From the NCBI GenBank assembly GCA_965248265.1, contig CBDFJF010000001.1, positions 2,432,001-2,496,000 of the forward strand: DNA of 64,000 bases, given 5' to 3'. Origin of the DNA: Candidatus Latescibacterota bacterium. Lineage in GTDB: Bacteria; Latescibacterota; UBA2968; UBA8231. Below the pieces are notes generated by a model, which saw nothing but the letters and a program-made list of their open reading frames with translations, ran no database searches and was not told the origin of the DNA. How positions within the stretch are numbered: the stretch's first letter is position 1; every line of letters starts with the position of its first letter. Position numbers and translations under genes: made by a program. Shown piece by piece: positions 1,699-28,478 of this stretch.

Positions 1699-3981
1699 CT
1701 ACAACTCGAGCTTTCGCAGGCGAAGGGAGTTGACGATCACCGACAGAGAACTGAATGTCATGGCCGCGCTGGCAATCATCGGACTCAGCAGCAACCCGGC
1801 AACAGGGTAAAGCACTCCGGCGGCAATCGGCACACCCAGACAGTTGTAAACGAAAGCGAAGAACAGATTCTGGCGGATATTGCGCATGGTCGCTTGGCTC
1901 AAACGACGAGCTCGCACGATCCCACGCAGGTCCCCCTTCACCAGCGTGATACCCGCACTTTCCATCGCCACGTCGGTACCAGTCCCCATAGCGACACCGA
2001 CGTGAGCCTGAGCCAGTGCGGGCGCGTCGTTGATTCCGTCGCCCGCCATGGCCACGGTGTGCCCCTCGCTCTGGAGTCGCCTTACCACCTCCCCTTTCTG
2101 CGCGGGCAGGACGTCGGCGTGCACGTCATCGATGTCGAGCGCATCCGCCACGGCTTCGGCACTCACGCGGTTGTCCCCGGTGAGCATGACGATCCTGATA
2201 CCAGCCTGGTGCAGTAGGCGAATCGCCTCAGGCGTCGATTCCTTGACAGGGTCCGACACTCCCAATAGACCCGCAGCCTTCCCGTCTACAGCTACGAACA
2301 TGACAGTCTGGCCTTCGCGTTGCAGCGTTGCTGCCTGCAGTGGAAGGGCTCCCACTTCAACATGCCTGTCTAGCAAGAACGCCTTATTGCCGAGACAGAC
2401 CGCGTGTCCGTCGAGGCGCCCCTCCACGCCCTTACCCGTCACGGACACGAAACTCTCCACCTCCTCCGGCGCGATGGCCCGTTCACGAGCGCCTGCTATG
2501 ACGGCTTCCGCCAACGGATGTTCGCTACCGCGCTCGAGGCTAGCTGCCACCCGGAGCAATTCATCCGTCGACCATGCACCAACTGCTTCAACCGATACCA
2601 GCTTCGGTCTGCCCTCGGTCAAGGTGCCAGTCTTGTCTACTACCAGCGTGTCCACCTTCTCCATGATCTCGAGCGCCTCGGCATTCTTGATGAGGACACC
2701 GGCCAGAGCGCCGCGTCCTGTTCCGACCATGATCGACATCGGCGTGGCGAGCCCCAACGCACAGGGACAGGCGATGATGAGAACGGCCACTGCGTTTACC
2801 AGGGCGTAGGTCATCGACGGCTCCGGTCCAATCCAGCTCCAAACGACGAAGGTGATGATGGAGGCGAAAACGACCGCCGGCACAAAGTAGGCGGCAACGA
2901 CATCCGCAAGTCTCTGGATGGGCGCACGAGTGCGTTGAGCCTCGTTGACCATGCGCACGATTTGCGAGAGCAGCGTATCCGCGCCAACGTGTTCAGCCCG
3001 CATCACGAAACCGCCCGTTCCGTTGATCGTGCCGCCTGTCACGCCACTGCCCGACTCCTTTTCGATAGGGACTGGCTCTCCCGTTACCATCGATTCGTCG
3101 ACGGTGCTGCGACCGGTGACCAGCACACCGTCGACGGGCACTCGTTCACCTGGGCGCACGCGGAGAAGGTTCCCGGGCGACACCAGTTCGAGCAGGACCT
3201 CTTCGTCCTCCTCCCCTTCACCGTGCACCAGAATCGCTGTGCTGGGCGTTAGCCCCAACAGTGCTTTGATAGCGCTGCTGGTTCGGCTCCTCGCTCGCAG
3301 CTCCAGCACCTGACCCATGAGAACGAGTGTCGTTATCACGGCAGCCGCCTCGAAATAGACTGCGACCTCTCCTTGCGGACCGCGAAACGAGGCAGGAAAG
3401 ATCCGCGGCGCCAGGGTCGCGACCAGGCTGTACCCATAGGCCGCGCCAACGCCTCCGGCGATGAGAGTGAACATGTTCGGACTCAAGCGCAGCAGCGAAT
3501 TCCATCCGCGCACGAAGAAGGGCCACCCCGCCCACACAACAACCGGTGTCGCCAGGACAAGCTGAATCCACGTCGCCGTGTGGGCATTCAGCAGTCGACC
3601 GAGCGGCTGCCCCGGGATCATCTCACCCATGGCCAGCACGAAGGCCGGCAGGGACAGTACCAGGCTTGTCCAGAAGCGCCGAGTCATGTCGATGAGTTCG
3701 GGGTTGGCGGCCTCATCCACGACCACGGTACGAGGCTCCAGCGCCATACCGCAGATTGGGCAGTCGCCTGGCTGGGACTGCACTACTTTGGGATGCATCG
3801 GGCAGGTGTATTCGATCTGCGTCGCCGGACCCGCCTCGACGAGTGGTTCCAGGGCCATGCCACAATCGGGACAATCTCCCGGACCCGTCTGCCTCACTTC
3901 CGGGTGCATGGGACAGGTGTGTACTGCACCCTCGTCCTCTCCCTCGTTCTCTCCATTGTTACAACAGTGTTCACCACTCAT
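1699..3981 (-). CDS. copA: Cu(I)-translocating P1B-type ATPase with two N-terminal CPMHP heavy-metal-binding domains
   Basis: TGE, CPC, DKTGT, SEHPL, GDGIND, YN and MxxSS motifs; two CPMHP..PGxCPxCGMAL repeats; start set at ATG 3981 (ORF track 4005). Confidence 0.93.
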
Positions 3982-4008
3982 CGGTCTGGAGTCAGCTCCG
4001 GGCAATGG

Positions 4009-7000
4009 TCAGGTCAATTCCTGCGTGCTGCCACTTTCTTCTCGATTCATCTCCCAATCCTTCCACAGAGCGTATATCACCGGTAGCACCAGTAGCGCCA
4101 GCGCGGTGGCCGAGATCATCCCGCCCACCATCGGCGCCGCGATCCGCCTCATGACCTCGGAGCCCGTTCCGTGTCCCCACATGATCGGCAGCAGGCCGCC
4201 GACCGTCGAGCACACCGTCATCATCACCGGTCGCAACCGTAGCTTGGCGCCCTCGATGACCGCCTGGTACAGATCCTCTCGATCCAGCAAGCGTCCCTCC
4301 TGACGCCTTTGGTAGAAAGCCTGGTCCAGGTAGGTCAGCATCACCACGCCGAGCTCGGCACTCACCCCGGCCAGGGCGATGAAACCAACCCCGACGGCAA
4401 TACTCATGTTGTAGTCAAGCAGGTAGATCAACCAGATGCCACCCACCAGCGCGAAGGGCAGCGACATCATGACGATCAGACTCTCGGTGATGTTGCGGAA
4501 GTTGAGGTAGAGGAGCAGGAAAATGATCGCCAGGGTCACCGGCACGACCATCCGCAGCCGTTCCTGCGCCCGCTGCATGTACTCGTACTGACCGCTCCAG
4601 ACCAAACTGTAGCCCGCGGGCACCTCGATCCTTTCCAGCAGCATCTGCTGAGCGCGCTCGACATAGGTGCCGACATCGATGCCACTGATATCGACGTAGA
4701 TCCAGGCGTTGAGACGGGCGTTCTCGCTTTTGATGCCAGGCGGACCTTTGCGAATCCGTATGTCAGCCAGCTGCTCCATCGGGATTTGCGCTCCGGTGGG
4801 GGTCGGCACCAGAACCCGTCTCAGCGCCGGCAGATTGTCTCGCAATTCTCTGCCGTAACGCAGATTCACGGGATAGCGCTCCCGACCCTCCACTGTATGC
4901 GTGATGTTCATGCCGCCCATTGCTGACATGATCACCTGCTGGACATCACCTACCGTCAATCCGTAGCGGGCGGCCTCCTCGCGGCGGATATCGAAGTCGA
5001 GATAGTTACCCCCCACGACCCGCTCCGCATAGACACTCAGCGTCCCTGGAATCTCCCGAACAACTTCCTCAATCTGCTGCCCGAGCCGTTGCAGAGTCTC
5101 CAGATTGTCCCCGGCTACCTTAATCCCAACCGGCGTTTTGATTCCCGTCGACAGCATGTCGATGCGAGTCTTGATCGGCATGGTCCAGGCGTTGGTCAGG
5201 CCCGGAAACTGAATCGCCGCGTTGAGCTCCTCCACCAATTTTTCCGGCGTCATGCCCGGCCGCCACTCCTCTTCCGGCCTGAGTGTTATCGTGGTTTCGA
5301 TCATCGACAGAGGCGCGGGGTCGGTCGCCGTCTCCGCCCGGCCGATCTTGCCGAATACATTATCAACTTCCGGAAAGGTGCGAATGATTTTGTCGGTTTG
5401 CTGCAGCAACTCCCGCGCCTTCGTCACCGATAGCCCTGGCAGCGTCGTCGGCATATAGAGCAGGTCGCCTTCGTACAGAGGCGGCATGAACTCGGAGCCG
5501 ATCCGCTCCAGCGGAAAGATCTCGTCTACCTTGACGAGCGCGCGATAGGACAGGCTGCGCGGATCATCGGCAAAGGACTCGACCACCTGGCTGCGGAAGG
5601 GAAATAACGTCACGAACACGAGTACCCCACCAGCCGCCACAACGATAGCCTTGTGCCGCAATGACCACTCAATCACCGGGCGATACACCCATACCAAAGC
5701 ACGATTGAGCGGGTTCTTACGCTCGGGTAGGACGCGGCCCCGAATCAGGAATCCCATCAGCACCGGCACGATCGTGATCGACAGCAGTGCCGCACCCACC
5801 ATGGCATAGGTCTTGGTGTAAGCGAGGGGCTTGAAGAGGCGTCCTTCCTGGGCTTGCAGCGAGAATACCGGCAAGAACGACAGGGTGACGATCAACAGCG
5901 AATAGAACAGGGCCGGTCCGACTTCAAGGGCGGCTTCACGGATGATTTGCCAATGACCCTTGGTGTCTCTGTCACGCTCGAGATGTTTGTGCGCGTTCTC
6001 GATCATGACAATAGCGGCATCCACCATGACCCCGATGGCGATGGCGATCCCGCCCAGAGACATGATATTGGCATTGATCCCCTGCTGGTGCATGATGATG
6101 AAGGAGATCATGATGCCGACGGGAAGCGTGAATATCGCCACGGCCGCACTGCCCATGTGCAGCAGGAACAGCACGCAGACCAGAGCTACGACGACACTCT
6201 CCTCGATCAGCTTCTCGCTGAGATTGTCTATCGCTCTCAGGATCAAGCCGGAGCGATCGTATGCCGCTGTAACCTGGACACCCTCCGGCAGCCCGGACTT
6301 GAGCGCCTCCAGCTTCTCTTTGACCCGTTCGATGACATCGAGGGCGTTTTCACCGTATCGCATCACCACCACTCCGCCGACGATCTCCCCCTCGCCGTTC
6401 CACTCTGCCAACCCACGCCGCAGCTCCGGTCCCAGCTGCACGGTCGCGATGTCCTGAATCCGGATCGGCGTGCCGTTTGCATCTACGCCAACCGGAATGG
6501 TGCGGATGTCCTCGAGCGATTCGATGTAACCCAACCCCCTCACCATGAACTCGGTCTCGGCCAGTTCGATCAACCGACCTCCGACATCGTTGTTGCTGCG
6601 TTCGATCGCCAGGCGAACCTTGTGCAGTGGAATGTTGAAGGCTGACAGTCGATTCGGATCGACCGTTACTTGGTACTGTTTGACAAAGCCTCCGATGCTG
6701 GCCACTTCGGAAACACCGGGCACGCTCGTCAACTCATACCGCAGATACCAATCCTGAATGGAACGCAACTCCGACAGATCGTGGCGCCCGGTGGTGTCTT
6801 CCAGCACGTACTCGTAGACCCAGCCGACTCCGGTGGCATCCGGTCCCAGTTTGGGCGTCACACCTGTGGGCAGCCTGTCTGTGACAAAATTCAAATACTC
6901 CAGCACCCTGCTGCGTGCCCAATACATATCTGTGCCATCCTCGAAAAGGACGTACACGAACGACAACCCGAAAAAGGAGTAGCCACGGACGACCTTCGCG

Positions 7001-7233
7001 AACGGCACCGCCAGCATGGCCGTGGTCAGCGGATAGGTCACCTGGTCCTCAACTACCTGCGGTGCTTGACCGGGATACTCGGTAAGGAGGATGACCTGCA
7101 CGTCAGACAGATCCGGTATGGCATCAAGCGGCGTGTTCAACATGGCGTAGGTGCCGGCGCCGATGACGAGGACCGTCAGCAGGATGGTCAAGAATTTGTT
7201 GTCGATGCTCGTTTCTATGATCCGGTTCAGCAT
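4009..7233 (-). CDS. cusA: CusA/CzcA heavy-metal efflux RND permease
   Basis: PLDAIPDLSDVQV N-terminus, GPDATGVGWVYEY, Met-containing motifs EGDLLYMP / PAPLSMIET / RIDMLSTG, GVMVDAAIVMIEN. Confidence 0.95.
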   Translation of the reverse strand: MLNRIIETSIDNKFLTILLTVLVIGAGTYAMLNTPLDAIPDLSDVQVILLTEYPGQAPQVVEDQVTYPLTTAMLAVPFAKVVRGYSFFGLSFVYVLFEDGTDMYWARSRVLEYLNFVTDRLPTGVTPKLGPDATGVGWVYEYVLEDTTGRHDLSELRSIQDWYLRYELTSVPGVSEVASIGGFVKQYQVTVDPNRLSAFNIPLHKVRLAIERSNNDVGGRLIELAETEFMVRGLGYIESLEDIRTIPVGVDANGTPIRIQDIATVQLGPELRRGLAEWNGEGEIVGGVVVMRYGENALDVIERVKEKLEALKSGLPEGVQVTAAYDRSGLILRAIDNLSEKLIEESVVVALVCVLFLLHMGSAAVAIFTLPVGIMISFIIMHQQGINANIMSLGGIAIAIGVMVDAAIVMIENAHKHLERDRDTKGHWQIIREAALEVGPALFYSLLIVTLSFLPVFSLQAQEGRLFKPLAYTKTYAMVGAALLSITIVPVLMGFLIRGRVLPERKNPLNRALVWVYRPVIEWSLRHKAIVVAAGGVLVFVTLFPFRSQVVESFADDPRSLSYRALVKVDEIFPLERIGSEFMPPLYEGDLLYMPTTLPGLSVTKARELLQQTDKIIRTFPEVDNVFGKIGRAETATDPAPLSMIETTITLRPEEEWRPGMTPEKLVEELNAAIQFPGLTNAWTMPIKTRIDMLSTGIKTPVGIKVAGDNLETLQRLGQQIEEVVREIPGTLSVYAERVVGGNYLDFDIRREEAARYGLTVGDVQQVIMSAMGGMNITHTVEGRERYPVNLRYGRELRDNLPALRRVLVPTPTGAQIPMEQLADIRIRKGPPGIKSENARLNAWIYVDISGIDVGTYVERAQQMLLERIEVPAGYSLVWSGQYEYMQRAQERLRMVVPVTLAIIFLLLYLNFRNITESLIVMMSLPFALVGGIWLIYLLDYNMSIAVGVGFIALAGVSAELGVVMLTYLDQAFYQRRQEGRLLDREDLYQAVIEGAKLRLRPVMMTVCSTVGGLLPIMWGHGTGSEVMRRIAAPMVGGMISATALALLVLPVIYALWKDWEMNREESGSTQELT

Positions 7234-7250
7234 GGCTTGGCCTTCCCGGC

Positions 7251-8654
7251 TTAGTTGTCCGTTTGGGATGCGTGTGGATCGGGTACCATGCCTTCGGCCT
7301 CCTGTGCAACCATGGCGCGCACGGCCGCCTTCAGGTTGCTCTCTGAGTCGATCAAGAACTGGGCCGAGGTTACGATACGCTCGCCGTCACTCAAACCGTC
7401 GAGCACTTCGTACAACCCATCGGCCTCAACACCGATCGTGATATCTCTGGGCTGAAAGCGCCCGTCTCCCAAGCTGACGACGGCGACACGGCGTTCACCG
7501 GAGTGGATGATAGCCTGTGCCGGTACCACGAGTGCATCCTTGGACACCGGGGAATGAATAGTGACGCTGGCGTACATCTCCGGTTTGAGCTCGAAGTCCG
7601 GATTGGGGAGGCTCAGCCTGACCTTTACCGTCCGCGTTTCAGGCTCCAGGAACGGAAAGATGTGGGTCACGGTCCCTGTGAACTGCTTGCCTGGCAGGTA
7701 AGACAGCTCCACCTGCGCTTCCTGCCCCTCCCGCACCCAGGGCAACTCGTACTCGTACACGTGGGCGTACACCCACACAGGCGAGAGTTCGGCTATTCGA
7801 TAGAGATGCTGACCCGGATGAATGTGTTCACCTTCGTACACGGCTTTGTGGACGACGGCGCCTTCCTGCGGTGAGTACACTGTCATCGTCCGCGTCACTA
7901 CCCCCGTGCTCTCCAGCTGTTGAATCTGCTCCATGGTGACATCCCAGTGGTGGAGTCGATGCCGGGACGCCTGCAGCAGGTCGACTCCACCCATCTTGGC
8001 ATCGGTGTCCGGGCTGGCATCTACACGGCGTTTGTAATCCAGAGCCGTCAGGTGTTCTTCCTGGGCGGCCACGAGTTCTGGACTGTAGATCTCGAGCAGG
8101 GGCTGACCCTTCTCAACCAGCTGTCCGGTGTAGTCGACATGCAGTTTCTCCACCCAGCCGGCGATCTTGGTGTTGACATCCGTCATCCGTGTCTCGTCAT
8201 AATCGACTCTGCCGACCGCGCGCACGCTGCGGTTGAGTCGCTGACGCCGAACGGTTTCCGTCTTGACCCCGATGTTCTGGACGGTGACGGGATCGATTTT
8301 GATTGTTGTACTGACGGCTTCTTCCACATAGACGGGGACCAAATCCATGCCCATGGGCGATTTCCCCGGGGCGTCCGCGGTGTAGCTCGGATCCATGGGT
8401 GCCCGCCAGTAGGCAACTTCCCGTTCACCAGTGGCCTCGCTCGAACTGGACTCCGCAATGTCCTTTGCCATGTCCATGCCGCAGACCGGGCAACTGCCCG
8501 GACGATCCGAAACCACGGTCGGGTGCATTGGGCAGCGATAGGTCTCCGCTTGCTCGTGTTCATGCACATCATAAGTGGGCGATCCGAGCAACCAGGTGCC
8601 TGTGCCGATGCCGACGATCAGGGAGATCGAAATAGTCAGTATGTATTTCATCAT
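7251..8654 (-). CDS. cusB: CusB-type RND periplasmic adaptor with heavy-metal-binding domains
   Basis: YRCPMHP..PGSCPVCGM and YWRAPMDP..PGKSPMGMDLVP domains; IYSPEL, LKPEMY, SAQFLIDSES. Confidence 0.92.
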   Translation of the reverse strand: MMKYILTISISLIVGIGTGTWLLGSPTYDVHEHEQAETYRCPMHPTVVSDRPGSCPVCGMDMAKDIAESSSSEATGEREVAYWRAPMDPSYTADAPGKSPMGMDLVPVYVEEAVSTTIKIDPVTVQNIGVKTETVRRQRLNRSVRAVGRVDYDETRMTDVNTKIAGWVEKLHVDYTGQLVEKGQPLLEIYSPELVAAQEEHLTALDYKRRVDASPDTDAKMGGVDLLQASRHRLHHWDVTMEQIQQLESTGVVTRTMTVYSPQEGAVVHKAVYEGEHIHPGQHLYRIAELSPVWVYAHVYEYELPWVREGQEAQVELSYLPGKQFTGTVTHIFPFLEPETRTVKVRLSLPNPDFELKPEMYASVTIHSPVSKDALVVPAQAIIHSGERRVAVVSLGDGRFQPRDITIGVEADGLYEVLDGLSDGERIVTSAQFLIDSESNLKAAVRAMVAQEAEGMVPDPHASQTDN

Positions 8655-8659
8655 GGGAG

Positions 8660-9967
8660 TTATTTCCTCTGTCCAGGCCGCGAGGCATGGGGCTCGAACA
8701 ATCTGGCGCCAACGACCGCTTCGACCTGCGCCAGGCTCTTCTCAAAGGCCATGCGATGGCGGAAGTAGCCGATCTCGAAGTTCAGCAGGGATACCTGGCT
8801 GTTCAGCAGCGTCAGGAAATCGACTTTGTCGACCTGGTACCCCGCCATTGACGCACTGAGGGATTGTTCCGCCTGGGGAATGATGGCAGTCTTGAACAAG
8901 GCCGTTTGCTCCTGGTGCGCCTCGATGTCCACGGCAAGCTTTTGGATCTCCAGGAAAATCTGTTGCCGACGGGCCTCGAATTCAGCTTCGGCCGCGGTCC
9001 GGCGAGCACTCGTTTCTGCTGAGCGCTGATCCTGCTTGCTGCCTGTGTATAGCGGCAGATTCGCTGCCACGGCAACGGAGATGAAATCGCTGCCCCCGAC
9101 CGGATCGTTGGCGAAGCTGCGCTGACGATAGCTGACGCTCAAGTCGAAGTCGGGGCGGTAGTCGGCGCGCGCCAGATCCTCGGCCGCCTGCCAGTGCGCG
9201 ACTTGCGCGCGCAGCTGTCGCAGTGCAGGCCTGCGCTCCAGCGCCATCTGCTGCAGGTCCTCTGCCTCGTACGTGAAATGCGATACCAGCGGGGTCTCTA
9301 CTTCACCCAAAGGCCGTTGCGGTGATTGATTCAGCACCGTGTTCAACTCGGCCTCAGCGTGTCCGCGACGGCGCCGCAGCTGGATCAAGTCATCCTTCAG
9401 ACTCGATAGCGCGACCTGCGCCTTGAGCACGTCCTGCTGAAGACCGGTGCCGACGGCGTACTTGGTCTGGGCAATGTGTATTAGATCGCGCAGCAGGGCC
9501 TCGTTTTCACCGGTGATTTCGATCGCTCTGTCGAGAAAGGCCAGGGTGAAGTAGCTCTGCTTGACCAGGTTGACGATGACACCCTGTCGGTCCTGGTAAA
9601 TGGCCTCTGTCGCCAATGCCGTGTGCTCGGCCATGCGCTCACGAGCGTCGCGCTTGCCCCAATACGGCAGCCGTTGAGTCAGCATCAACTGGATTCCGCT
9701 CATAGGTGAGCTATCGAAATCGAGCTCGTTCAACGGCACGTTGCTGAAGTCCATGGTCAACATCGGATCTATCAATGCACCCGCTTGGGGAACACGGCGG
9801 CGCGCCGCTTCGACGCGCTCCCGCAATACGGTGAGACTCGGATTGCGCTCCAGTGCCTCCTCAATGAGTCCTTCCAGCGAGAGACGGGGCGTTTGTGCAT
9901 TCACCTGGATGCTCGAGAGCATCAGCGACACGACGGCGCAGATTGTGATGGTGAACTGTTGTGACAC
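8660..9967 (-). CDS. TolC-family outer-membrane efflux protein (CusC-like)
   Basis: GTG start with strong GGAGG RBS; signal peptide; OEP repeats (LTQRLPYWGK, NLPLYTG, YQVDKVDFLTLL); first structural gene of the cus cluster. Confidence 0.88.
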   Translation of the reverse strand: MSQQFTITICAVVSLMLSSIQVNAQTPRLSLEGLIEEALERNPSLTVLRERVEAARRRVPQAGALIDPMLTMDFSNVPLNELDFDSSPMSGIQLMLTQRLPYWGKRDARERMAEHTALATEAIYQDRQGVIVNLVKQSYFTLAFLDRAIEITGENEALLRDLIHIAQTKYAVGTGLQQDVLKAQVALSSLKDDLIQLRRRRGHAEAELNTVLNQSPQRPLGEVETPLVSHFTYEAEDLQQMALERRPALRQLRAQVAHWQAAEDLARADYRPDFDLSVSYRQRSFANDPVGGSDFISVAVAANLPLYTGSKQDQRSAETSARRTAAEAEFEARRQQIFLEIQKLAVDIEAHQEQTALFKTAIIPQAEQSLSASMAGYQVDKVDFLTLLNSQVSLLNFEIGYFRHRMAFEKSLAQVEAVVGARLFEPHASRPGQRK

Positions 9968-10148
9968 GGTGTTCCTCCCTCCTCCTGGCCTCTTTCCACA
10001 TCCTGAGAGTGGGATGGCTCATTGCCTTGCACGCACACCTTCGAGGTGACAGGTACACGCGTACGAATCCCAGTTGGGCGGATTACACGAATCCGGGGCA
10101 TTGTGGCCGCGGATTCCAGATGCAAGGTGTAGTCAGGTGTAATCTGGT

Positions 10149-10171
10149 ATTGCCCTCGAAGAGAGGGCAAT
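10149..10171. promoter_or_regulatory. Perfect 9-bp hairpin immediately after the leader ORF stop
   Basis: ATTGCCCTC-gaaga-GAGGGCAAT; no U-tract. Confidence 0.5.
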
Positions 10172-10174
10172 GGA

Positions 10175-10576
10175 TCAGATCAGAAGGGTGCGGTTGAGAA
10201 TGTGGAGCGGAGGTTTCACGATATCGGGCTCAGAATGCAGGTACCTATAGGCATCTGGTTGCCATCGAACCTCGATGCATTGGCTATGAGCGTACGGAAC
10301 GTCTGGGTCCCCTTTCGACGCCGTCGCTTCCGCGACATCGCCGGTGGCAACCACTTCCATCCCGAGGCATTGCGAGATTTCGGGACAGCAGCAGGGGTTC
10401 TGCAGGCGGACATCGGTTGCGGAGGAAGATCCGCTGTGGCACACTACTGCTGAATCGGACATCGAGCAACCACTTGCCGCATAGCCCAGATTGGCCTGAA
10501 GCGACAGACTCAGAATGAAGAACAGATAGGTCCCAAGTCGGAGAGTTTTGGTGTAATCTGGTCGTATCGCAATCAT
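10175..10576 (-). CDS. Small Cys-rich signal-peptide protein, candidate CutF/CruR/HYC_CC_PP-type leader peptide
   Basis: 133 aa, hydrophobic N-terminus, 7 Cys including CCC, C-terminal PPLHILNRTLLI; lies directly upstream of cusCBA. Confidence 0.6.
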   Translation of the reverse strand: MIAIRPDYTKTLRLGTYLFFILSLSLQANLGYAASGCSMSDSAVVCHSGSSSATDVRLQNPCCCPEISQCLGMEVVATGDVAEATASKGDPDVPYAHSQCIEVRWQPDAYRYLHSEPDIVKPPLHILNRTLLI

Positions 10577-10608
10577 CGTCAGGTTCCCATGAACATACGG
10601 CCGGCGTC

Positions 10609-12012
10609 CTATTTGGCAACCTCGTGCGCATCGATGTGGTATTTTGACAACAGCCGGTGCAGGGATCGCCGATCGATACCGCTGTGCTCGGCGGAACGAG
10701 AGATATTGCCCTTGAAGTTCTTCAGGACATCCGTGATGTAACGTCGCTCAAAGTCCTCGATCAACCGCTCCTTCGCGTCCTTGAAAGGCAGATCCAAGTA
10801 GTACTCCACCTGGGGCTCGGCCTCTCGGTCTCCGCTGCGCTTCACCGCTTCGGGAAGATCATCCACGGAGATGCTGTCGCCGCTGGCCAGGATCAACGCT
10901 CTCTCCAGCACGTTCTGAAGTTCGCGCACATTGCCGCGCCATTCGTGCGCCGTCATCAACTCCATCGCCGAGTCATCGATACCGACTGCCGGCTTTCTGT
11001 TTTTCTCAGCGAACACCTGCAGGTAGTGATTGGCCAATAGTATGATATCGTCACGGCGCTGTTTCAGTGGTGGTAAATGGATGGGAAAGGTGTTGATGCG
11101 GTAAAAGAGATCCTCGCGGAAATCACCTTCCTCGACGGCGAGATCCAGGTTCTGGTTCGTGGCGCAGATGAGGCGAAAGTCCGATTCGCGTTCCTGGTTG
11201 CTGCCCAGGCGCCGGAAGCTGCCGTCCTCCAGAGCGCGCAGAAACTTGACCTGCAACGTGTGCGGCAACTCCCCGATCTCGTCCAAGAAAAAAGTGCCGC
11301 CGTCGGCCTCCTCGAGCAGTCCGGGGCGCGACTTGGCCGCACCGGTAAACGCCCCTTTTTCGTAGCCGAAAATCTCACTCTCCACCAGGTTTTCCGGCAG
11401 CGCCCCGCAGTTGATCGGCACGAACGGCTTGCCGTGGCGGAAGCTGTTGGTGTGAATGCTGCGGGCGATCAGTTCCTTCCCAGTGCCGCTGGCTCCGGTG
11501 ATCAGCACATTGATATTACTGTCGGCGATTTTCTTGATCGACTCGAAGATCTGCACCATCGGAACGCTGCGGCCGATGATGTTGTCGAAACTGTACTCGC
11601 GGCCCAACTGCTCTTTCAGGCTGCGGTTCTCTTTTCGCAGTTCGCTGTCTTCCAGCACCCGCTCAACCACGATGGACAGGTGCTCGGGAGTGAACGGCTT
11701 CGGGATGAAATCGGCAGCTCCCAGTCGCATGGCCTCGACGGCGTCTTCGATGGTGCTGAACGCCGTCATCATCACCACGACGGTTTCCGGGCTCTCGGCC
11801 TTGACCTGCTTGAGCAACTCCATCCCACCCATCCCCGGCATCTTCAGATCGGTGAGAACGAGATCCGATGCATCCTGCCGGACGGTCTCTATGCCCTCCT
11901 CGCCCGAATGGGCCACGGCAGTGCGATACCCGTTGCCGTCGAGAAGCCGCTGACAGCTGGAGGCCAGGTCAGCCTCGTCGTCCACGATCACGATTCTGGG
12001 TGCATTAGCCAT
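10609..12012 (-). CDS. Sigma54-dependent response regulator (NtrC/AtoC/ZraR family)
   Basis: REC domain (VDDE, TDLKMPG, KPF), Walker A GASGTGKE, GAFTGA, FLDEIGE, WRGNVREL, C-terminal Fis-type HTH. Confidence 0.95.
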   Translation of the reverse strand: MANAPRIVIVDDEADLASSCQRLLDGNGYRTAVAHSGEEGIETVRQDASDLVLTDLKMPGMGGMELLKQVKAESPETVVVMMTAFSTIEDAVEAMRLGAADFIPKPFTPEHLSIVVERVLEDSELRKENRSLKEQLGREYSFDNIIGRSVPMVQIFESIKKIADSNINVLITGASGTGKELIARSIHTNSFRHGKPFVPINCGALPENLVESEIFGYEKGAFTGAAKSRPGLLEEADGGTFFLDEIGELPHTLQVKFLRALEDGSFRRLGSNQERESDFRLICATNQNLDLAVEEGDFREDLFYRINTFPIHLPPLKQRRDDIILLANHYLQVFAEKNRKPAVGIDDSAMELMTAHEWRGNVRELQNVLERALILASGDSISVDDLPEAVKRSGDREAEPQVEYYLDLPFKDAKERLIEDFERRYITDVLKNFKGNISRSAEHSGIDRRSLHRLLSKYHIDAHEVAK

Positions 12013-12078
12013 ATAGCTTTCTCCCAGGTGGTGTTGAGGCGAGATTCATGAGTACACCCCTCCTTATGTCTTGCCTTG

Positions 12079-12094
12079 CGCAATCTCTGTGCCG
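12079..12094 (-). promoter_or_regulatory. Sigma54 (-24/-12) promoter for the activator-leader-cus-copA unit
   Basis: Minus strand CGGCAC-AGAGA-TTGCG versus consensus TGGCAC-N5-TTGCW. Confidence 0.75.
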
Positions 12095-12113
12095 ACTGCC
12101 GAACCATGACACC

Positions 12114-12126
12114 TAACCAATTGTTT
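12114..12126. promoter_or_regulatory. IHF-like site
   Basis: Minus strand AAACAATTGGTTA, one mismatch to WATCAANNNNTTR; in an AT-rich patch between the sigma54 promoter and the putative UAS. Confidence 0.55.
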
Positions 12127-12184
12127 TTATTACCTATTTAGTTTGTATGGGCACATCCCAGCCACGCTCGCCACTATCATCAAC

Positions 12185-12222
12185 TGAGACAAGTATAGCC
12201 CAGGTGGGACATTGACGCCTCA
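12185..12222. promoter_or_regulatory. Tandem putative upstream activator sites (TGRGAC-N6-GTCCCA-like)
   Basis: TGAGAC-aagtat-AGCCCA (12185-12202) and TGGGAC-attgac-GCCTCA (12205-12222); the same motif pair occurs at 17181-17217. Confidence 0.55.
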
Positions 12223-12279
12223 CTGCAGTTCGGACTGGGGCCCAAATGATCGACATGTGAGGGACATTCGGGTTGTGCG

Positions 12280-14223
12280 TCAGCGACGTGCCTCCAGCGC
12301 CAGACGCACTTCGCCGAGAAGATCAGCAGGGGCAAACGGCTTTTGCAGCACGCGAAAACCCAGTTCGTTGACACGCTCCCATTCCACCCGTTCGTCCGTG
12401 TACCCGGTTACAAACAAGCAACGCAGGCCCGGTTTTTCCACTAGCAACTCGAAGACGAAGTCCGGACCCCGCCCATCCGGCAACACTATGTCGGTGAGTA
12501 CCAGGTCGAATCCCAACCCTTTGCTGTTCCATACTGCTCGGGCAGCCGCCAAGGAACCACAGGCGCTAACACTGTAACCCGTCTCCGTCAGGATTTTCTC
12601 TGCCCTGATGCGCAGGTCCTCGTTGTCTTCTATCACGAGTATGCGTTCGCCTCTGCCAACGTGATCGGCCATCGCTGCGTTGCCCTGGGAACTCGTTGCT
12701 CTCACCTCGTCATGAATGGCCGGCAGGAAAATGTCGAACTTCGTGCCCTCTCCCAGACGGCTTTTTACTTCTATCCAGCCCTCATGCCCTTCGACGATTC
12801 CGTAGACGACGGAGAGTCCCAGGCCCGTCCCCTTGCCAACCTCCTTCGTGGTGAAGAAGGGCTCAAAGATCCGCGCACTGGTCTCCTCATCCATGCCACA
12901 ACCCGTGTCGGTGATGGTCAAACGGCAGAACTGTCCTGGTGAAGCCTGCGTATGGGTCTGGCAGTGTTCGTCCGTCACTGTCACGTTTCGCGTCAGAACG
13001 GTCAGCTCCCCACCATCGGGCATGGCGTCGCGCGCGTTGACGCACAGGTTAATGACGATCTGGTCCATGTTGCCGGGGTCGGCGTTGATGAGATCCAGGT
13101 CCGCGGCCAGATCGATCGTCACCTCGATATGTTCGCCGAGCAACCGGCTCAGCATCTTCTGCAGCTCCTGGATATGGCCGTTCAAGCTCATCGGCTCGGG
13201 CTCCATGCGCTGCCGGCGACTGAACACGAGTAACTGGCGCGTCAGATCTGATGCCCGCAGCACGACCTTGCGAATTTTTTGCAGGTCTTCCCGCAAGGAG
13301 GTCTCTTCGGCTGCTGCGGCCAGCAGCATATCCACGTCGAACAGGATGATACCGAGTTGATTGTTGAAATCGTGAGCAACCCCGCCGGCCAATTGGCCGA
13401 TCGATTCCATTTTTTGTGCTTGCAGCAACTGACCCTGGAGACGCTTGTAATCGGTCACATCTTGACCGCAGGCAATCAAGCCGATCGGTTCGCCGTGAAT
13501 GCCTGTCAAGCGGTCTGAATTCCACGAAATGACGCGCTCGGTGCCGTCCCGGGTGGTAACCGGGTTTTCATAGGCGCGGGCCGGTCTTCCTGACAGAATC
13601 TGCTGCATCTCGACCTTCACTCGATCTCTCACAGCCGCCGGCAGGAAGCGCCCTACATAGTCGACACCCAGCGCTTCCTCGCGCTGAAATCCGTAGACCC
13701 TCTCCGCCTCGCGATTCCACTCGAGCACCTCGAATTTCGGGGAGAGGACGATGATGACCATGCCCGCGGCCTCGAAGACTGAACGCAGACGCTCTTCGCT
13801 GGTCCGTAGGGCCTCCTCCGCCTTTTTGCGTTCGGAGATATCCCGGATCACTCCCGTGAACTTGCGCCCCCCAGCATCCGCGTACTCACCCACAGCGAGA
13901 TCCATCGGGAAGGTCGTGCCATCTTTGCGCAGTCCGGTGACCTCACGCCCGATACCTATGATTTTTTTTTCACCACCGTCGACGTAGTTGCCGATGTAAC
14001 CGTCGTGTTCTCTTCGATATGGCTCTGGCATCAATACAGAAACGTTGCGGCCGATTACCTCCTTTGCACGATACCCGAAGATCAATTCCGCGGCCGGGTT
14101 GAACGACTCGATCATCCCTTGCTCGTCGATACTGATAATCCCTTCGACCACGTTCTCGACGACAGACCGATAACGGTCTTCCAATGAGCGATCTCCCGCT
14201 CGATCGTCAGGGGCAGTCATCAA
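12280..14223 (-). CDS. Hybrid sensor histidine kinase: FixL-type heme PAS + PAS + HisKA/HATPase + REC
   Basis: LMPEPYRREHDGYIGNY..IIGIGREVTGLRKDGTTFPMDL resembles the FixL heme-PAS; AHDFNN, NARDAM, DTGCG, PFFTTK, GTGLGL; C-terminal receiver; no transmembrane helix seen. Confidence 0.9.
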   Translation of the reverse strand: MMTAPDDRAGDRSLEDRYRSVVENVVEGIISIDEQGMIESFNPAAELIFGYRAKEVIGRNVSVLMPEPYRREHDGYIGNYVDGGEKKIIGIGREVTGLRKDGTTFPMDLAVGEYADAGGRKFTGVIRDISERKKAEEALRTSEERLRSVFEAAGMVIIVLSPKFEVLEWNREAERVYGFQREEALGVDYVGRFLPAAVRDRVKVEMQQILSGRPARAYENPVTTRDGTERVISWNSDRLTGIHGEPIGLIACGQDVTDYKRLQGQLLQAQKMESIGQLAGGVAHDFNNQLGIILFDVDMLLAAAAEETSLREDLQKIRKVVLRASDLTRQLLVFSRRQRMEPEPMSLNGHIQELQKMLSRLLGEHIEVTIDLAADLDLINADPGNMDQIVINLCVNARDAMPDGGELTVLTRNVTVTDEHCQTHTQASPGQFCRLTITDTGCGMDEETSARIFEPFFTTKEVGKGTGLGLSVVYGIVEGHEGWIEVKSRLGEGTKFDIFLPAIHDEVRATSSQGNAAMADHVGRGERILVIEDNEDLRIRAEKILTETGYSVSACGSLAAARAVWNSKGLGFDLVLTDIVLPDGRGPDFVFELLVEKPGLRCLFVTGYTDERVEWERVNELGFRVLQKPFAPADLLGEVRLALEARR

Positions 14224-14376
14224 AGCTTGCTCTGTTGAAAGCCAAAAGGCTCGTCGGAATCAGTCCGGACGAGCCCATATTCAGCCGGTGCTTGCGCATT
14301 GTTCTCACAATCGTCTTCCACGTGCGTGGGTTTAGCAGATCAATCGATCTGAGCTATCCCGACTATCCATAGCGCG

Positions 14377-14392
14377 TACAATTCTCGTGCCG
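14377..14392 (-). promoter_or_regulatory. Possible degenerate sigma54 promoter upstream of the kinase
   Basis: CGGCAC-GAGAA-TTGTA; perfect -24 element but -12 GC changed to GT. Confidence 0.3.
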
Positions 14393-14460
14393 GGCACGGG
14401 AAGCTGTCAAGGCTCCTGAGCCTCGGCGCGTGTAGTTTACGACGCAGCCGTTCAATCGAA

Positions 14461-15099
14461 TCAGGGCGTCAATCCAGGATTAGCCGGTTGCCGTCGTAGA
14501 ATGAGATCGAAGCCGACCATGAGTTCGTCGTGAACTCGTACCAGACCCAGGAAACGGCGGGGCGGATTCACGCCGAAGTTCGACATGCGGATCGGCGTAG
14601 CTCCGCTGGCGTGAATCCGACCGGCCTCGTCGCGGCTTCCCTCTACAACGAAGTCGATGCTGCGACGCTCTCCCGCAACACTCAGGTCGCCCCACACACG
14701 CAGGCGCCGGGATTCGCCGGAGTCTTCCATCTGCCCTGTCACGTTCCGCCCGGCGATGAAATCAAAGAGGATTTGTGGAAACTGTGCCGCATTGAGGGCT
14801 TTCTCGAGATCTCGCTCCATGCGTTCGTTGCCACAGTCGAAACCGTCCACGGGAATCGCGACGTTTACCGTGGCGTGCTCCCAGGTGATGGGTTCATCGA
14901 TTCGTCCGGGCGAGCCGTGCACGATAGCCGTAACGTCGTACCCGGCGGCATCGCAGTCGAAGCGGTTTACGTTAGAGCGCCCTTCGATCCACAGCCGACT
15001 GGCTTCGAGGGTGACGTACCTGTCAGCTTGCGCAGCCTGGCCAAGGCTCGTTATCCAAAGCGCTTGGAGCGTCAGGCACAGGAGGCGTCGTTTCGACAC
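14461..15099 (-). CDS. YceI-family (polyisoprenoid-binding) secreted protein
   Basis: GTG 15099 with GGAG RBS; signal peptide; SRLWIEGRSNVN, FDCGN..M..DL..AL.A.QFPQI.F, GDLSVAG, MSNFGVNPP. Confidence 0.8.
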   Translation of the reverse strand: MSKRRLLCLTLQALWITSLGQAAQADRYVTLEASRLWIEGRSNVNRFDCDAAGYDVTAIVHGSPGRIDEPITWEHATVNVAIPVDGFDCGNERMERDLEKALNAAQFPQILFDFIAGRNVTGQMEDSGESRRLRVWGDLSVAGERRSIDFVVEGSRDEAGRIHASGATPIRMSNFGVNPPRRFLGLVRVHDELMVGFDLILRRQPANPGLTP

Positions 15100-15103
15100 G
15101 GTG

Positions 15104-15691
15104 CTACTCCAGGGCGAGAGTGAAGTGCACGTCAACGATGTCCGCTGCCTTGATCGTGCCGAACATGGCTGTGGGCGGTTTGATGTCGAAGCTCGTCATG
15201 CGTAACGGCGTGCGCCCGGTGACAGTCAGATGCCCGTCGTCATCGAAGTACGCTGCCGCTTCGAGGTTGACTTCGCGCTCCACGCCGGCAGCAGAGACGA
15301 GCCCCTGTGCAGCGATCGTCGCGGTGTCGCCTGCCGCCTCGACGCGCGTTACTTCGGTGAGCTCGAAGGTAATGTCGGGATGCTTCTTCTGGCGCAGATG
15401 CTTGCGAATCCTGCCCGTCAGACCCCGGGTCTTGGAGGAGATCCCCTCTACCGGAAGGCGCATGACGAGACTCTGAAACATGCTTGGTGTCAGCTCGTCG
15501 ACCCGGCCGGCTTGGTATGCCGCAAGATTGAGCTTCACGTCGATTTCCGTGAACTCCGCACCCCAATCGTGGACGTTGGAAGTACCGGTGATGCGCACCA
15601 CGTGCAATTCGGTTTGGGTCAGGATCTCAGCAGTGGCGACGACGGCGAGGAAGACGACGAAAAAGGTGATGGGTGTGACAGATCGTGCCAT
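15104..15691 (-). CDS. YceI-family secreted protein
   Basis: ATG 15691; signal peptide; ITGTSNVHDW, KKHPDITF, LSAAG, MTSFDIKPPTAMFGTIK. Confidence 0.82.
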   Translation of the reverse strand: MARSVTPITFFVVFLAVVATAEILTQTELHVVRITGTSNVHDWGAEFTEIDVKLNLAAYQAGRVDELTPSMFQSLVMRLPVEGISSKTRGLTGRIRKHLRQKKHPDITFELTEVTRVEAAGDTATIAAQGLVSAAGVEREVNLEAAAYFDDDGHLTVTGRTPLRMTSFDIKPPTAMFGTIKAADIVDVHFTLALE

Positions 15692-15702
15692 GATATATGC
15701 CC

Positions 15703-15739
15703 AAAAAAAAACCGGGCGGGCGTTGGGCTCCACCCGGTT
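15703..15739 (-). terminator. Intrinsic terminator/attenuator between the barrel gene and the YceI genes
   Basis: Minus strand AACCGGGTGG-loop-CCGCCCGGTT running into a T tract (A run at 15703-15711 on plus). Confidence 0.65.
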
Positions 15740-15755
15740 GATGAGTGCGGTCGGG

Positions 15756-17030
15756 TCAGAAGGCGACCGTGCTTTCCACCATGAACCCGTCGAAGCTGCC
15801 TCCATGGCGCAGATCCTCAGCGGGGAAATCGTTGTAGCCCTGATCCACGTACTCAGCCTTGATCAGGACGTTGTCCGTCACGAACCATCCGGTTCCCAGC
15901 TGGACGCGATCGATCGAAGCATCGCCGCCTCCCACCAGGTCCCCGGTCACTGTGTTGTAGCGGGCACCGATGTAAACCTTGTCCGCTTCTGTGAAGCGGT
16001 AGAGAATCTCAGCCGCGTACTGATTCCAGGTTCGGTCCGCACTCTCATTGGCGGCGCGGCCGTTGGCACGCTCGATGGTACCGAAGAACTCAAGGCCTCC
16101 TACCTGCACGAAGGGGTTTGCGACCATCGCCGTGACCTTACTGCGAAATCCGGGGTTGAAGCGGCCAGAGGTGAAGTTCGACGACGTTGAGGCATCCTCT
16201 CCTTCGAGCACCAGGTAATAGCGTGAGCCGCCGCGATCGCCGGAGTAGAGCGTGTTGTTCAGGCTCTTGCTCGTGGTGTAGGCAGACCCGGTGAGACGCA
16301 CCCGCAGATCGGGCCGGATCTCCCCGTCATAGCCGACCTTGCCGTAGAAGGAGGGAGCCCGGCCGTCGGGACGATCCACAGACCCCTTGATTTCTCCCCC
16401 CGTAATCGCACCCATGGCCAGCCAGCCGCTGTTGTGGTAGTAGACCTCGGCGCCGATCTCGGTGGTGAAGGCATCCATGATGAGGTTTCCCACCATGGGA
16501 TTGTACATTGCGTTGGCGTTGTCCGACCGGCGAAAGTGGGCGTCCCCGTAGTTGATCTCGAAGTGCCCCGCCTTCAAGGTCAGGTTTTCCATCAACCGGT
16601 CGATGGTTTGGTTGTTCAACACGGTCAGTTTGTCCACCTGCATGTACCCACCCTTGACCCAGGCGTCCGGGTGGTGACGGGACGACAGGTAGGTGATCAG
16701 ATTGACTCGAATCCCGTCGGCAAGCTGAACGTCCGTGTTCAGATTAGCCGTAGCGGTATTGAATCCGGCACCCAGTTCCACCAGTCCACCCGGGGTGTTG
16801 TTGTGATCGACCCCCTGGAACTGCTGGGTGAAAGCGGCGCCCCACTTGACAGTGACACCATCGAAAGGGACGGCGCTTTCGGTGGGAGGCTCGAACACGG
16901 TAATTCCCGTTTTGTCGTAGGGCCGTACGTACTGCACACCCTCGGTGGCCTGACCATGGGATGCGGCTGGGATCGCCACGGCGATCGATATCAGCGCGAC
17001 CTTGCGCAGGGTCGTCATTCGGGAGGACAT
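15756..17030 (-). CDS. Uncharacterised outer-membrane beta-barrel protein
   Basis: ATG 17030 with AGAAAGGAG RBS; signal peptide; alternating amphipathic strands; C-terminal beta-signal GFMVESTVAF; motifs YLSSRHH, GHFEINYGDAHFRRSDN. Confidence 0.75.
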   Translation of the reverse strand: MSSRMTTLRKVALISIAVAIPAASHGQATEGVQYVRPYDKTGITVFEPPTESAVPFDGVTVKWGAAFTQQFQGVDHNNTPGGLVELGAGFNTATANLNTDVQLADGIRVNLITYLSSRHHPDAWVKGGYMQVDKLTVLNNQTIDRLMENLTLKAGHFEINYGDAHFRRSDNANAMYNPMVGNLIMDAFTTEIGAEVYYHNSGWLAMGAITGGEIKGSVDRPDGRAPSFYGKVGYDGEIRPDLRVRLTGSAYTTSKSLNNTLYSGDRGGSRYYLVLEGEDASTSSNFTSGRFNPGFRSKVTAMVANPFVQVGGLEFFGTIERANGRAANESADRTWNQYAAEILYRFTEADKVYIGARYNTVTGDLVGGGDASIDRVQLGTGWFVTDNVLIKAEYVDQGYNDFPAEDLRHGGSFDGFMVESTVAF

Positions 17031-17100
17031 GGCCAACTCCTTTCTGTGAACCCCCCGGTTGACCGAGGGGGATAGGGTTTCTGTCACTCACTCAATCTGT

Positions 17101-17116
17101 TGCAAGAGCTGTGCCT
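17101..17116 (-). promoter_or_regulatory. Sigma54 (-24/-12) promoter of the barrel-YceI-YceI operon
   Basis: Minus strand AGGCAC-AGCTC-TTGCA, about 70 bp upstream of ATG 17030. Confidence 0.78.
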
Positions 17117-17180
17117 GTCGAACAAAACCCAGATCTCAGAGAGTAGTTGCTGCAGAAAGGGCGGGAGTTACTGGTATGAA

Positions 17181-17217
17181 TGGGGGGTTCGTGTCCCACT
17201 GGGACGTACCTGTCCCT
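17181..17217. promoter_or_regulatory. Tandem putative upstream activator sites TGGGAC-N6-GTCCCA
   Basis: TGGGGG-gttcgt-GTCCCA (17181-17198) and TGGGAC-gtacct-GTCCCT (17200-17217). Confidence 0.6.
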
Positions 17218-17302
17218 GCTCGGGCGGGATCCGAGTGTCCGTTATTCCAGTTTACAGCGACGTGGTACGCAGCCGCCGCGCTTCTTTCTTCACCCGAAAG
17301 AC

Positions 17303-17338
17303 AAAAGGCCCGTCCGAGTCGAGCGGACGAGCCTTTTT
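17303..17338. terminator. Rho-independent terminator after moaD (bidirectional form)
   Basis: AAAAGGCCCGTCCG-agtcgag-CGGACGAGCCTTTTT. Confidence 0.8.
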
Positions 17339-17378: not shown

Positions 17379-17654
17379 TCACACCCCTCCCCCACTCATG
17401 GCGGGCAGGAAGTGGAGCTCACTCGACTCGCCCACCTTCTTACGCAGTCCCTCTCGGGTGATCTCTCCATCGACCGCAACGGCGATCACCGTCTTGATCT
17501 TGTCCTCTTCCTCGTCGACGAGGCGCGCCCACATACCGGGATACGATTCCTCCAGCTCGGTGATAATCTCGCGAACTGTGGTTCCCTTGACCTCGATCTG
17601 TTGTTGCCCCTGCGTCAGCTTCTGCATCAGAGGCGGTATCCACACGGTTGGCAT
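17379..17654 (-). CDS. MoaD/ThiS-family ubiquitin-like sulfur carrier
   Basis: MPTVWIP, G.TVRE..ELE..YPG, AVDGE, LPAMSGG(GV). Confidence 0.85.
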   Translation of the reverse strand: MPTVWIPPLMQKLTQGQQQIEVKGTTVREIITELEESYPGMWARLVDEEEDKIKTVIAVAVDGEITREGLRKKVGESSELHFLPAMSGGGV

Positions 17655-17679
17655 GTAGCGACGACCAGAGTCGATCGAT

Positions 17680-20004: not shown

Positions 20005-20071
20005 GGCTACCCCCTGCTGTTGTTAGCCCTGATATCAGGGCAATCACTGTTTGTGATCTGGGCTGACACCA

Positions 20072-20536
20072 TTAACCTGCGGCGTCCAGTACCGCGCGGA
20101 CAATCTTGTCGTATCCAGTGCAGCGACACAGATTGCCTGCCAGCCAGTGCCTGACTTCATGCTCGCTCGGGTTGGGATTGCGATCGAGCAGGGCCTTGCT
20201 CGCCACCAGGAACCCCGGCGTGCAAATGCCGCACTGCAACCCGGCATGCTCGAGGAACTTCTGCTGCAGCGGATGCAGCTTGTCCGGCTTGGCCAGCCCC
20301 TCGACCGAGGTGATCTCCTTACCCTCGGCCTCCACCGCCATCACCAGACACGAATCCACAAGCACGCCATCCACGATAACGCTGCAGGCCCCGCAGTTGC
20401 CGTCGTTGCACCCCTCCTTGGTCCCCGTAAACCCCAGCTCCTCGCGCAAAACCTCTAGCAGACTCTGCCGCGGCTCACACAAGAAATCCGTCTCTTCACC
20501 ATTAATAACACAACTGACCTGAGTCTTCGCACTCAT
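20072..20536 (-). CDS. (2Fe-2S)-binding small subunit (CoxS/CutS-like)
   Basis: GTKEGCNDGNCGACSV, QCGICTPG, GNLCRCTGY. Confidence 0.92.
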   Translation of the reverse strand: MSAKTQVSCVINGEETDFLCEPRQSLLEVLREELGFTGTKEGCNDGNCGACSVIVDGVLVDSCLVMAVEAEGKEITSVEGLAKPDKLHPLQQKFLEHAGLQCGICTPGFLVASKALLDRNPNPSEHEVRHWLAGNLCRCTGYDKIVRAVLDAAG

Positions 20537-20636
20537 TCTCAATCCACCTTTTCTATATGACTAATCTCAATTTGCAGCAGTTCTCAGCCCTATCGGTTAG
20601 TCTTCACTTATTCGCACATATGGAAGCTCAGCTGGC

Positions 20637-20712
20637 GAAGGAGTTTCGCAGCACTGCGACTACTCCTTCCAAGCGGCTCCACCTCCTCAGGAGTTTCGCA
20701 AAGCGAAACTCC
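20637..20712. repeat. Two related REP-like palindromes in the coxM-coxS spacer
   Basis: GAAGGAGTTTCGCA-gcac-TGCGACTACTCCTTC (20637-20669) and GGAGTTTCGC-aaa-GCGAAACTCC (20690-20712). Confidence 0.6.
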
Positions 20713-20725
20713 GAAAGAGTCGCCC

Positions 20726-27799: not shown

Positions 27800-27800
27800 C

Positions 27801-28478
27801 TCACGCCTCCGCGACGGCGGCAACCGTATCCACGTCTATGACGCGAGGTGCCCGTAAACCGGCGACGATGAAACAGGTTAGTCGAGTAATCGTCCCCTCG
27901 ACGTCGGAAGGATCGCACAAGCCACCTGAGGCGAGCGCGACGATATCGCTGGCGGAAGCCGTGTGCGCCATGGCCCCGATGGCGAAGTGTTTGCGCCATT
28001 CCAGCTCCTGTTCAGGCAACTGGGGCAGCGAGCGCTTCAGAATTCGCGAGAAACACTCGTTGACCTCCCGAAACTGGTCAATGATGGCGAGCTTGTGCGC
28101 GCTGGTGGGTTCACTGAAGAGCCGGCCCATTAGGCGCATGAAGGCCTCTCCTCCCTGGTTGGGATCGTGGCGTAGGCGCAGTGCCGGCCCGACCAACGCC
28201 CGCACCGCGACCGCCAGGGGATCTCCCGATTGGCTGGGACCAGTCCCGTGCTCACACTCGCGCAGTAGCCGCAACCTCTCTCGGTTGAGTGGTTCCAACC
28301 GACGGGCAAACACCGCCGACACCAGGGCCTCCTTCGAGCCGAAATGATAGTGGACGGAGGCGAGATTCACGTCTGCCTCAACGGTGATGGCCCGCAGTGA
28401 CGTTGCCGCGATTCCGTGATGAGCGAACAAACGTTCGGATGCGTCAAGCAGGCTATTTGTGGTATCTCGAGAGGCCAA
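27801..28478 (-). CDS. TetR-family regulator, PsrA-like
   Basis: LDASERLFA..G...TSLRAIT..ADVNLASVHYHFGSKEAL; start uncertain (TTG 28478; ORF track 28523). Confidence 0.85.
   Translation of the reverse strand: MASRDTTNSLLDASERLFAHHGIAATSLRAITVEADVNLASVHYHFGSKEALVSAVFARRLEPLNRERLRLLRECEHGTGPSQSGDPLAVAVRALVGPALRLRHDPNQGGEAFMRLMGRLFSEPTSAHKLAIIDQFREVNECFSRILKRSLPQLPEQELEWRKHFAIGAMAHTASASDIVALASGGLCDPSDVEGTITRLTCFIVAGLRAPRVIDVDTVAAVAEA

Follow-up and report, generated by a model that had tools for sequence, protein, structure and literature searches.

A FixL-type sensor and a sigma54 activator in a candidate low-oxygen two-component regulon of Latescibacterota

Which signal is answered by two sigma54 promoters that carry the same tandem dyads and lie on either side of the gene for a putative heme-binding kinase? 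The question is raised by a locus of a Candidatus Latescibacterota bacterium (assembly GCA_965248265.1, contig CBDFJF010000001.1), which was analysed within a window of 64,000 nucleotides (positions 2,432,001 to 2,496,000 of the contig) and extends there from 10,609 to 17,217. Coordinates without further label are positions in that window, and all genes of the locus are on the minus strand. Their order on that strand is promoter P2, a porin-like barrel, a terminator-like hairpin, two YceI genes, a hybrid kinase, promoter P1, an activator, an open reading frame (ORF) of 133 amino acids, a 208-bp spacer and the genes TolC-CusB-CusA-CopA. We consider it likely that this locus represents a low-oxygen two-component regulon of Latescibacterota, in which a FixL-type sensor would act together with a sigma54 activator. 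The features concerned are listed here.

17200..17217, no strand assigned: distal upstream activating dyad of promoter P2, from motif scans
17181..17198, no strand assigned: proximal upstream activating dyad of promoter P2, from motif scans
17101..17116, minus strand: sigma54 -24/-12 promoter P2, with orthologous promoters in 6 other genomes and a predicted start near 17090
15756..17030, minus strand: predicted 16-stranded porin-like outer-membrane barrel (structure model, Foldseek, weak Porin_O_P match)
15717..15736, minus strand: terminator-like hairpin with T run between the barrel and the first yceI gene, a consensus match only
15104..15691, minus strand: YceI-like periplasmic protein 1 (PF04264; family profile against structures)
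14461..15099, minus strand: YceI-like periplasmic protein 2 (PF04264)
12280..14220, minus strand: cytoplasmic hybrid kinase with FixL-type heme-PAS, second PAS, HisKA, HATPase and REC (domain matches; FixL PAS structures in PDB)
12205..12222, no strand assigned: distal upstream activating dyad of promoter P1, from motif scans
12185..12202, no strand assigned: proximal upstream activating dyad of promoter P1, from motif scans
12114..12126, minus strand: site resembling that of integration host factor (IHF), one mismatch, not significant alone
12079..12094, minus strand: sigma54 -24/-12 promoter P1, kept upstream of ortholog operons, with a predicted start near 12068
10609..12012, minus strand: NtrC-type sigma54 activator, REC-AAA+ (GAFTGA)-Fis helix-turn-helix (HTH), helix IDRRSLHRLL (domain and ortholog comparison)

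A reading made from the sequence alone had placed two sigma54 promoters on the minus strand, each preceded by a tandem pair of one dyad, and both parts of this claim were borne out. P1 reads CGGCAC-AGAGA-TTGCG and P2 AGGCAC-AGCTC-TTGCA; the dyads at 12185 and 12205 are spaced by 20 bp, those at 17181 and 17200 by 19 bp, and they lie 64-110 bp from the promoters. The 7.32-Mb genome was scanned for tandem pairs of TGGGAC-N6-GTCCCA with at most 5 mismatches in total and a spacing of 18-23. Just three pairs were found, and since only those of P1 and P2, the best such pairs, have a sigma54 site nearby, their occurrence exceeds chance. With a matrix built from 32 sites of other genomes, P1 and P2 rank 1 and 2 among 1628 sigma54-like sites (34.0 and 29.8; next 16.7), a ranking which is partly circular because the training sites were chosen by motif likeness. 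The genome encodes rpoN, which the sequence-only reading had presupposed, and 29 sigma54 activators. The IHF-like site read in P1 is present with one mismatch, but the window contains 20 such matches against 15.75 expected and the site is therefore not above chance; two HU/IHF-family genes are found in the genome.

The activator domains REC, AAA and HTH_8 were confirmed, and the GAFTGA motif is present. An REC domain, an AAA+ domain with GAFTGA and a Fis-type HTH, together with paired upstream dyads, a -24/-12 promoter and rpoN, are the features of an NtrC-type enhancer-binding system. The protein scores below every NCBIfam equivalog cut-off shown, and the closest named relatives of both the activator and the barrel are from Ca. 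Latescibacterota. From sites around orthologs the motif was refined to the 18-bp form TGDGACA-N4-TGTCHCA, so that the enhancer first described as TGGGAC-N6-GTCCCA is indeed shared and conserved across Latescibacterota, but in a better form than the one proposed.

A cleaner test used a matrix from the four sites of this genome only and asked for a promoter plus pair with a score of at least 20. Ahead of the activator operon such an arrangement was found at 7 of the 15 ortholog loci (five genera, one family), and the other 28 activators encoded here have none (best score 10.8; no sigma54 match in 20), which supports the earlier suggestion that the activator drives its own gene. The recognition helix IDRRSLHRLL is present in 72 of the 74 top database matches and absent from the 46 next ones, as well as from the other activators of this genome. 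An altered helix in G045/G046 and in G041 (numbers with G denote genomes) goes along with altered paired sites at the neighbouring sigma54 promoter, two independent cases only. The activator was identified in 34 of 168 genomes of the phylum (E<=1e-12). Perfect motifs occur in 15 of these 34 genomes (31 sites) versus 10 of the 134 others (13 sites), with 7 sites in a reversed control; here again the pattern was chosen by motif likeness, which makes the test partly circular, and related genomes are not independent. Conservation and helix-site covariation indicate that the adjacent activator very probably reads the shared enhancer. In G059 an insertion sequence is located between a perfect motif site and the operon that this site precedes in G058 (L179:5964-7141).

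The kinase between the two promoters had been described as FixL-type, and this holds: the domain order PAS-PAS-HisKA-HATPase-REC was confirmed, and the best PDB matches of the first PAS domain are FixL PAS domains (E 2.8e-35). H72 and R92, 20 residues further on, are aligned with them (1d06, 8js5); we take H72 to be the heme ligand (proximal His) and R92 to be the distal residue. The heme His is retained in co-located kinase orthologs, and no globin family was found in the domain search of the kinase. Its FixL equivalog score is 242.7 bits with a cut-off of 850. A FixL-like heme-PAS gene is found within 3.8 kb of the activator in 11 of 20 ortholog loci, and in G058, G059, G046 and G097 it is situated directly ahead of the activator on the same strand. 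Two similar terminator-like hairpins were noticed at 14240-14270 and 17300-17330. The former is just ahead of the kinase start codon. Matches to a sigma70 promoter for the kinase (14381-14410) are at chance level, with 2 found and 2.4 expected.

A role related to oxygen, as the sequence-only reading had assumed, is supported by the regulon content in relatives, where some target names were assigned by N-terminal sequence recognition. Motif and promoter precede ccoI followed by ccoNO (COX1+FixO) in G019, G033 and G024, ccoI in G013, and the gene of pyruvate:ferredoxin oxidoreductase (PFOR) in G058, G120 and, with Usp, G025. Further targets are Usp, Crp-like genes and a heme-biosynthesis-type radical SAM gene. 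It is the cbb3 oxidase, PFOR and Usp that fit low oxygen and lead to this reading.

FixL is active in the deoxy state. By homology, the cytoplasmic FixL-type heme-PAS kinase would sense falling oxygen and, as the gene order suggests, would phosphorylate the neighbouring NtrC-type activator, while its own REC domain may serve as a sink or modulator. The activator would then bind the paired TGDGACA-N4-TGTCHCA sites and fire the sigma54 promoters, with P1 feeding back positively on the activator and P2 controlling the barrel-YceI-YceI operon. In relatives it would also drive the cbb3 oxidase, PFOR, Usp and other low-oxygen genes.

The regulon seems to be reduced to the two promoters P1 and P2 in the present genome, because neither ccoN nor PFOR gave a tblastn match and none of the 15 next-best motif sites, most of them intragenic, has a pair plus promoter. 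The motif scan of the genome, from which further members had been hoped for, thus returned P1 and P2 on top but added none among these sites. A PF12156 search for ccoI had no match here, and its control matched nowhere either. One lone strong site (G000:C2:3579322 of this genome) lies between divergent genes of a large respiratory cluster, which includes two COX1 operons; the site has no sigma54 match and may be a chance or a repressing one. At G000:C2:1615903-1617884 a HAMP histidine kinase gene has a sigma54-like promoter with a single motif site 210 bp ahead of it, which makes the gene a marginal candidate member.

Several observations weigh against a low-oxygen regulon of this design, in addition to the partial circularity of two motif tests and the lack of ccoN and PFOR matches in this genome. 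In 9 of 20 ortholog loci a heme-PAS gene was not found nearby, 8 of 15 show no autoregulatory promoter, and corrinoid methyltransferases, nuoA and a sigma factor are among the targets without obvious oxygen role. The activator operons of G019, G029, G006 and G038 contain a HAMP-domain kinase, in one relative with a Tll0287-like sensor, which may be the direct partner. These operons and the mixed targets would suit a motif-activator pair that is real and receives its main input from a membrane HAMP kinase, or through NO, CO or redox sensing by heme, as part of a broader energy-stress regulon. Kinases of the hybrid type with REC frequently require an additional step, which points in the same direction. 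Such an input is unlikely, however, as there is no HAMP kinase in this locus, heme-PAS genes stand immediately before the activator in the four genomes named above, and the cbb3, PFOR and Usp targets suit low oxygen. Finally, the nearly complete genomes G047, G066, G098 and G115 have motif and promoter without an activator at the threshold used, so another activator can read similar sites. With 29 sigma54 activators encoded, one of the 28 others might read the dyads here and the adjacent activator might be a mere target. We regard this as very unlikely, for the motif co-occurs with the ortholog across families, the sites cluster around the ortholog, and helix and sites covary.

The regulon with a FixL-type sensor and its adjacent activator thus stays the preferred reading, and the question remains what the operon behind P2 contributes to it. 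The barrel model has 16 strands and a pLDDT (predicted local distance difference test) of 92.9, with OmpT, OprP and OprO as Foldseek matches and a weak match to the Porin_O_P profile; in the ESM Atlas only unnamed or porin-named clusters were found, and the databases contain at least 7987 relatives. Most likely it is a substrate-selective porin. Both YceI-like proteins match PF04264, and the family profile matches polyisoprenoid-binding YceI structures. Of the envelope lipid or quinone module that had been proposed, the family membership stands, but nothing beyond that membership speaks for it; least certain are these roles of the barrel as a porin and of the YceI proteins, which may act as periplasmic carriers of hydrophobic ligands and so adapt the envelope to respiration at low oxygen. 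The proposed control of barrel-YceI-YceI by the activator fared better: of the 168 phylum genomes 7 encode the barrel, and in each of these it is preceded by a sigma54 promoter and motif sites; the sites of G130 are weak, and the best ones of G131 are 24 and 278 bp away.

The same module was followed in 80 barrel loci from other phyla, mostly Bacteroidota and Balneolales, in which neighbours within 6 kb were identified from one representative per cluster. YceI was found near 70 loci, Crp/Fnr near 25, a PAS kinase near 14, CcoI near 11, Usp near 4 and CcoNO near 3. The TGDGAC motif is present in none of 75 upstream regions of these barrel operons. A perfect RTGAY-N4-RTCAY box, derived from the same upstream regions and presumably similar to the Fnr box, occurs in 20 of 75 (0.3 in shuffles), and with one mismatch in 39 of 75 (7.6 in shuffles). 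In Bacteroidota and relatives (loci L010-L089) it is seen about 80-190 bp upstream of the yceI-barrel operon. The perfect boxes show no association with the presence of a Crp gene within 6 kb (6/24 versus 14/51). Since other phyla have the Fnr-like box and not the Latescibacterota motif, the module appears to be coupled to low-oxygen control through two regulators that are unrelated. We find it reasonably likely that barrel-YceI-YceI is a widespread low-oxygen envelope module which was wired independently to an Fnr-like box in Bacteroidota and to FixL-PAS/sigma54 in Latescibacterota.

The sequence-only reading also had a copper efflux operon begin 32 bp downstream of the activator. That was not correct: the gene at this distance is the leader-like ORF of 133 amino acids and not a transporter gene, and the TolC-like gene starts 208 bp beyond it.

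10175..10576, minus strand: leader-like ORF with hydrophobic N-terminus, C..CH..CCC and C-terminal PPLHILNRTLLI, candidate copper-sensing stalling peptide
9955..10215, minus strand: structured leader between leader ORF and tolC with hairpin 10149-10171, predicted pairing hiding the tolC ribosome-binding site
1699..9967, minus strand: copper efflux operon, adjacent and probably not a core regulon member
8660-9967, minus strand: TolC/CusC of this operon
7251-8654, minus strand: CusB of this operon
4009-7233, minus strand: CusA of this operon
1699-4005, minus strand: CopA-type ATPase of this operon

The leader ORF family precedes tolC in 26 of 32 loci. Its members share a hydrophobic N-terminus, judged by eye to be like an export signal, C..CH..CCC and a terminal PxLYLLHxSFLI; the ORF has no Pfam or NCBIfam match. 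The leader RNA has a fold z of -3.1, and pairing over the tolC ribosome-binding site is predicted here and, in similar form, in some relatives. Phylum-wide the family stands before heavy-metal efflux operons (10175-10576 here; loci L252-L280, L166 and L232), where PxLYLLHxSFLI and the stop codon are followed by a pyrimidine-rich stretch; for several loci, pairing of this stretch with the tolC ribosome-binding site is predicted. The leader ORFs are candidates for a new family of copper-sensing arrest peptides, and the copper operon is probably gated mainly by its own leader ORF. Around the leader ORF GATTACAC words are repeated (10085-10150 and 10550-10565), two of them in tandem at 10-bp spacing; other tolC loci do not share the repeats before tolC. 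In three runs of one sample, contigs carry an alternative 873-nt version of the 856-nt leader segment (9751-10608) with the same flanks, which suggests that a strain with a divergent allele of the leader co-occurs.

Does the regulon nevertheless extend to copper? Read-through from P1 via the activator into the leader ORF and the efflux genes would make efflux depend on low oxygen for its transcription and on copper for its translation, as in an AND gate. The gap of 32 bp between the same-strand activator and leader has no terminator-like match, and contigs of one study, possibly the source study, run from the last 29 nt of the activator into leader and tolC, and the second leader allele has the same flanks. 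Cu(I) is more toxic without oxygen. Copper genes also adjoin the activator in G019, G005 and G033; at tolC of G033 there is a sigma54 promoter and, 385 bp further upstream, a motif pair. However, the three adjacent cases are all convergent, and copper genes are downstream on the same strand in none of 20 ortholog loci. The TolC ortholog is found in 38 of 61 relatives, many of them activator-free, and the remaining 30 tolC upstream regions lack motif plus promoter. The promoter of a divergent sigma-factor gene lies just 40 bp from that G033 pair, and in G025 this gene is likewise a motif target. Hence the assumption that the activator drives copper efflux came out weak, with read-through possible at this locus, and co-regulation of copper with the regulon is doubtful. 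Still more doubtful is the combined picture of a low-oxygen envelope module and a sigma54 switch that feeds copper efflux gated by a new copper-sensing leader peptide family. A sigma70-family gene divergent from the copper efflux operon was seen in three genomes and is broken in G027 (L290:6985-7827, L232:3964-4926, L291:5991-6431, L242:2095-2979); with motif and sigma54 promoter in G033 and G025 it is a possible second tier of the low-oxygen response. Upstream of P2 a CoxMSL-like molybdoenzyme operon with a ThiS/MoaD gene (17379-21637) and a second, TetR-linked RND efflux operon (21823-28523) are encoded.

With the low-oxygen regulon as preferred here, an uncultured phylum would gain a candidate low-oxygen master switch and a defined motif with which low-oxygen genes may be read out from its genomes. 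A common hypothetical operon of a porin-like barrel and two YceI proteins would receive its first physiological context, approachable in cultured Bacteroidota. Literature searches returned no paper that describes the motif, a pairing of FixL-PAS with a sigma54 activator, or the barrel-YceI module; matches to the motif string were mostly primers, and the result excludes logos in figures and supplements, for example of PMC4641369 and PMC6615313, where a look-alike site is possible.

How does the locus compare with known systems? The rhizobial FixLJ(-FixK) shares the heme-PAS with proximal His and distal Arg and the cbb3 oxidase output. Its output regulator is FixJ, whereas here a sigma54 AAA+ activator adjoins the kinase, which as a PAS-PAS hybrid with REC also remains below the FixL cut-off. 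In CorSR of Myxococcus xanthus a sigma54 activator lies inside and controls a copper-tolerance operon with copA; CorS is a membrane-bound kinase whose sensor is periplasmic (PMC3707914), in contrast to the cytoplasmic heme-PAS kinase here, whose copper link is not conserved. The leader ORF is reminiscent of CruR/CutF, in which a copper operon begins with a small exported ORF rich in Cys, with a proline motif near the C-terminus, a long structured spacer and a predicted hidden ribosome-binding site (PMC9426467; bioRxiv 10.1101/2025.02.05.636593). The motifs given there are CXXC and RAPP, unlike C..CH..CCC and PxLYLLHxSFLI, and none of 15 leader family members matches DUF2946 (PF11162).

NmpRSTU of M. 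xanthus is an oxygen-responsive sigma54 regulon (PMC11841059). It resembles our locus in a heme-dependent kinase, an NtrC-type sigma54 activator, paired dyad enhancers and an activator that regulates its own operon. Its sensor is a protoglobin and not a FixL-type PAS, its site is GCGCA-N5-TGCGC (15 bp) instead of TGDGACA-N4-TGTCHCA (18 bp), and the main text of that paper makes no mention of YceI. The NmpRSTU regulon comprises a CcoI-type ATPase with cbb3 oxidase, Usp and HemN; CcoI/cbb3 and Usp are shared by the relatives of our genome, in which itself, unlike that regulon, cbb3 genes were not found. This likeness is one of architecture and regulon content. By this analogy the overall regulatory logic is not new and our surprise is moderate, and we regard NmpRSTU as the closest known system.

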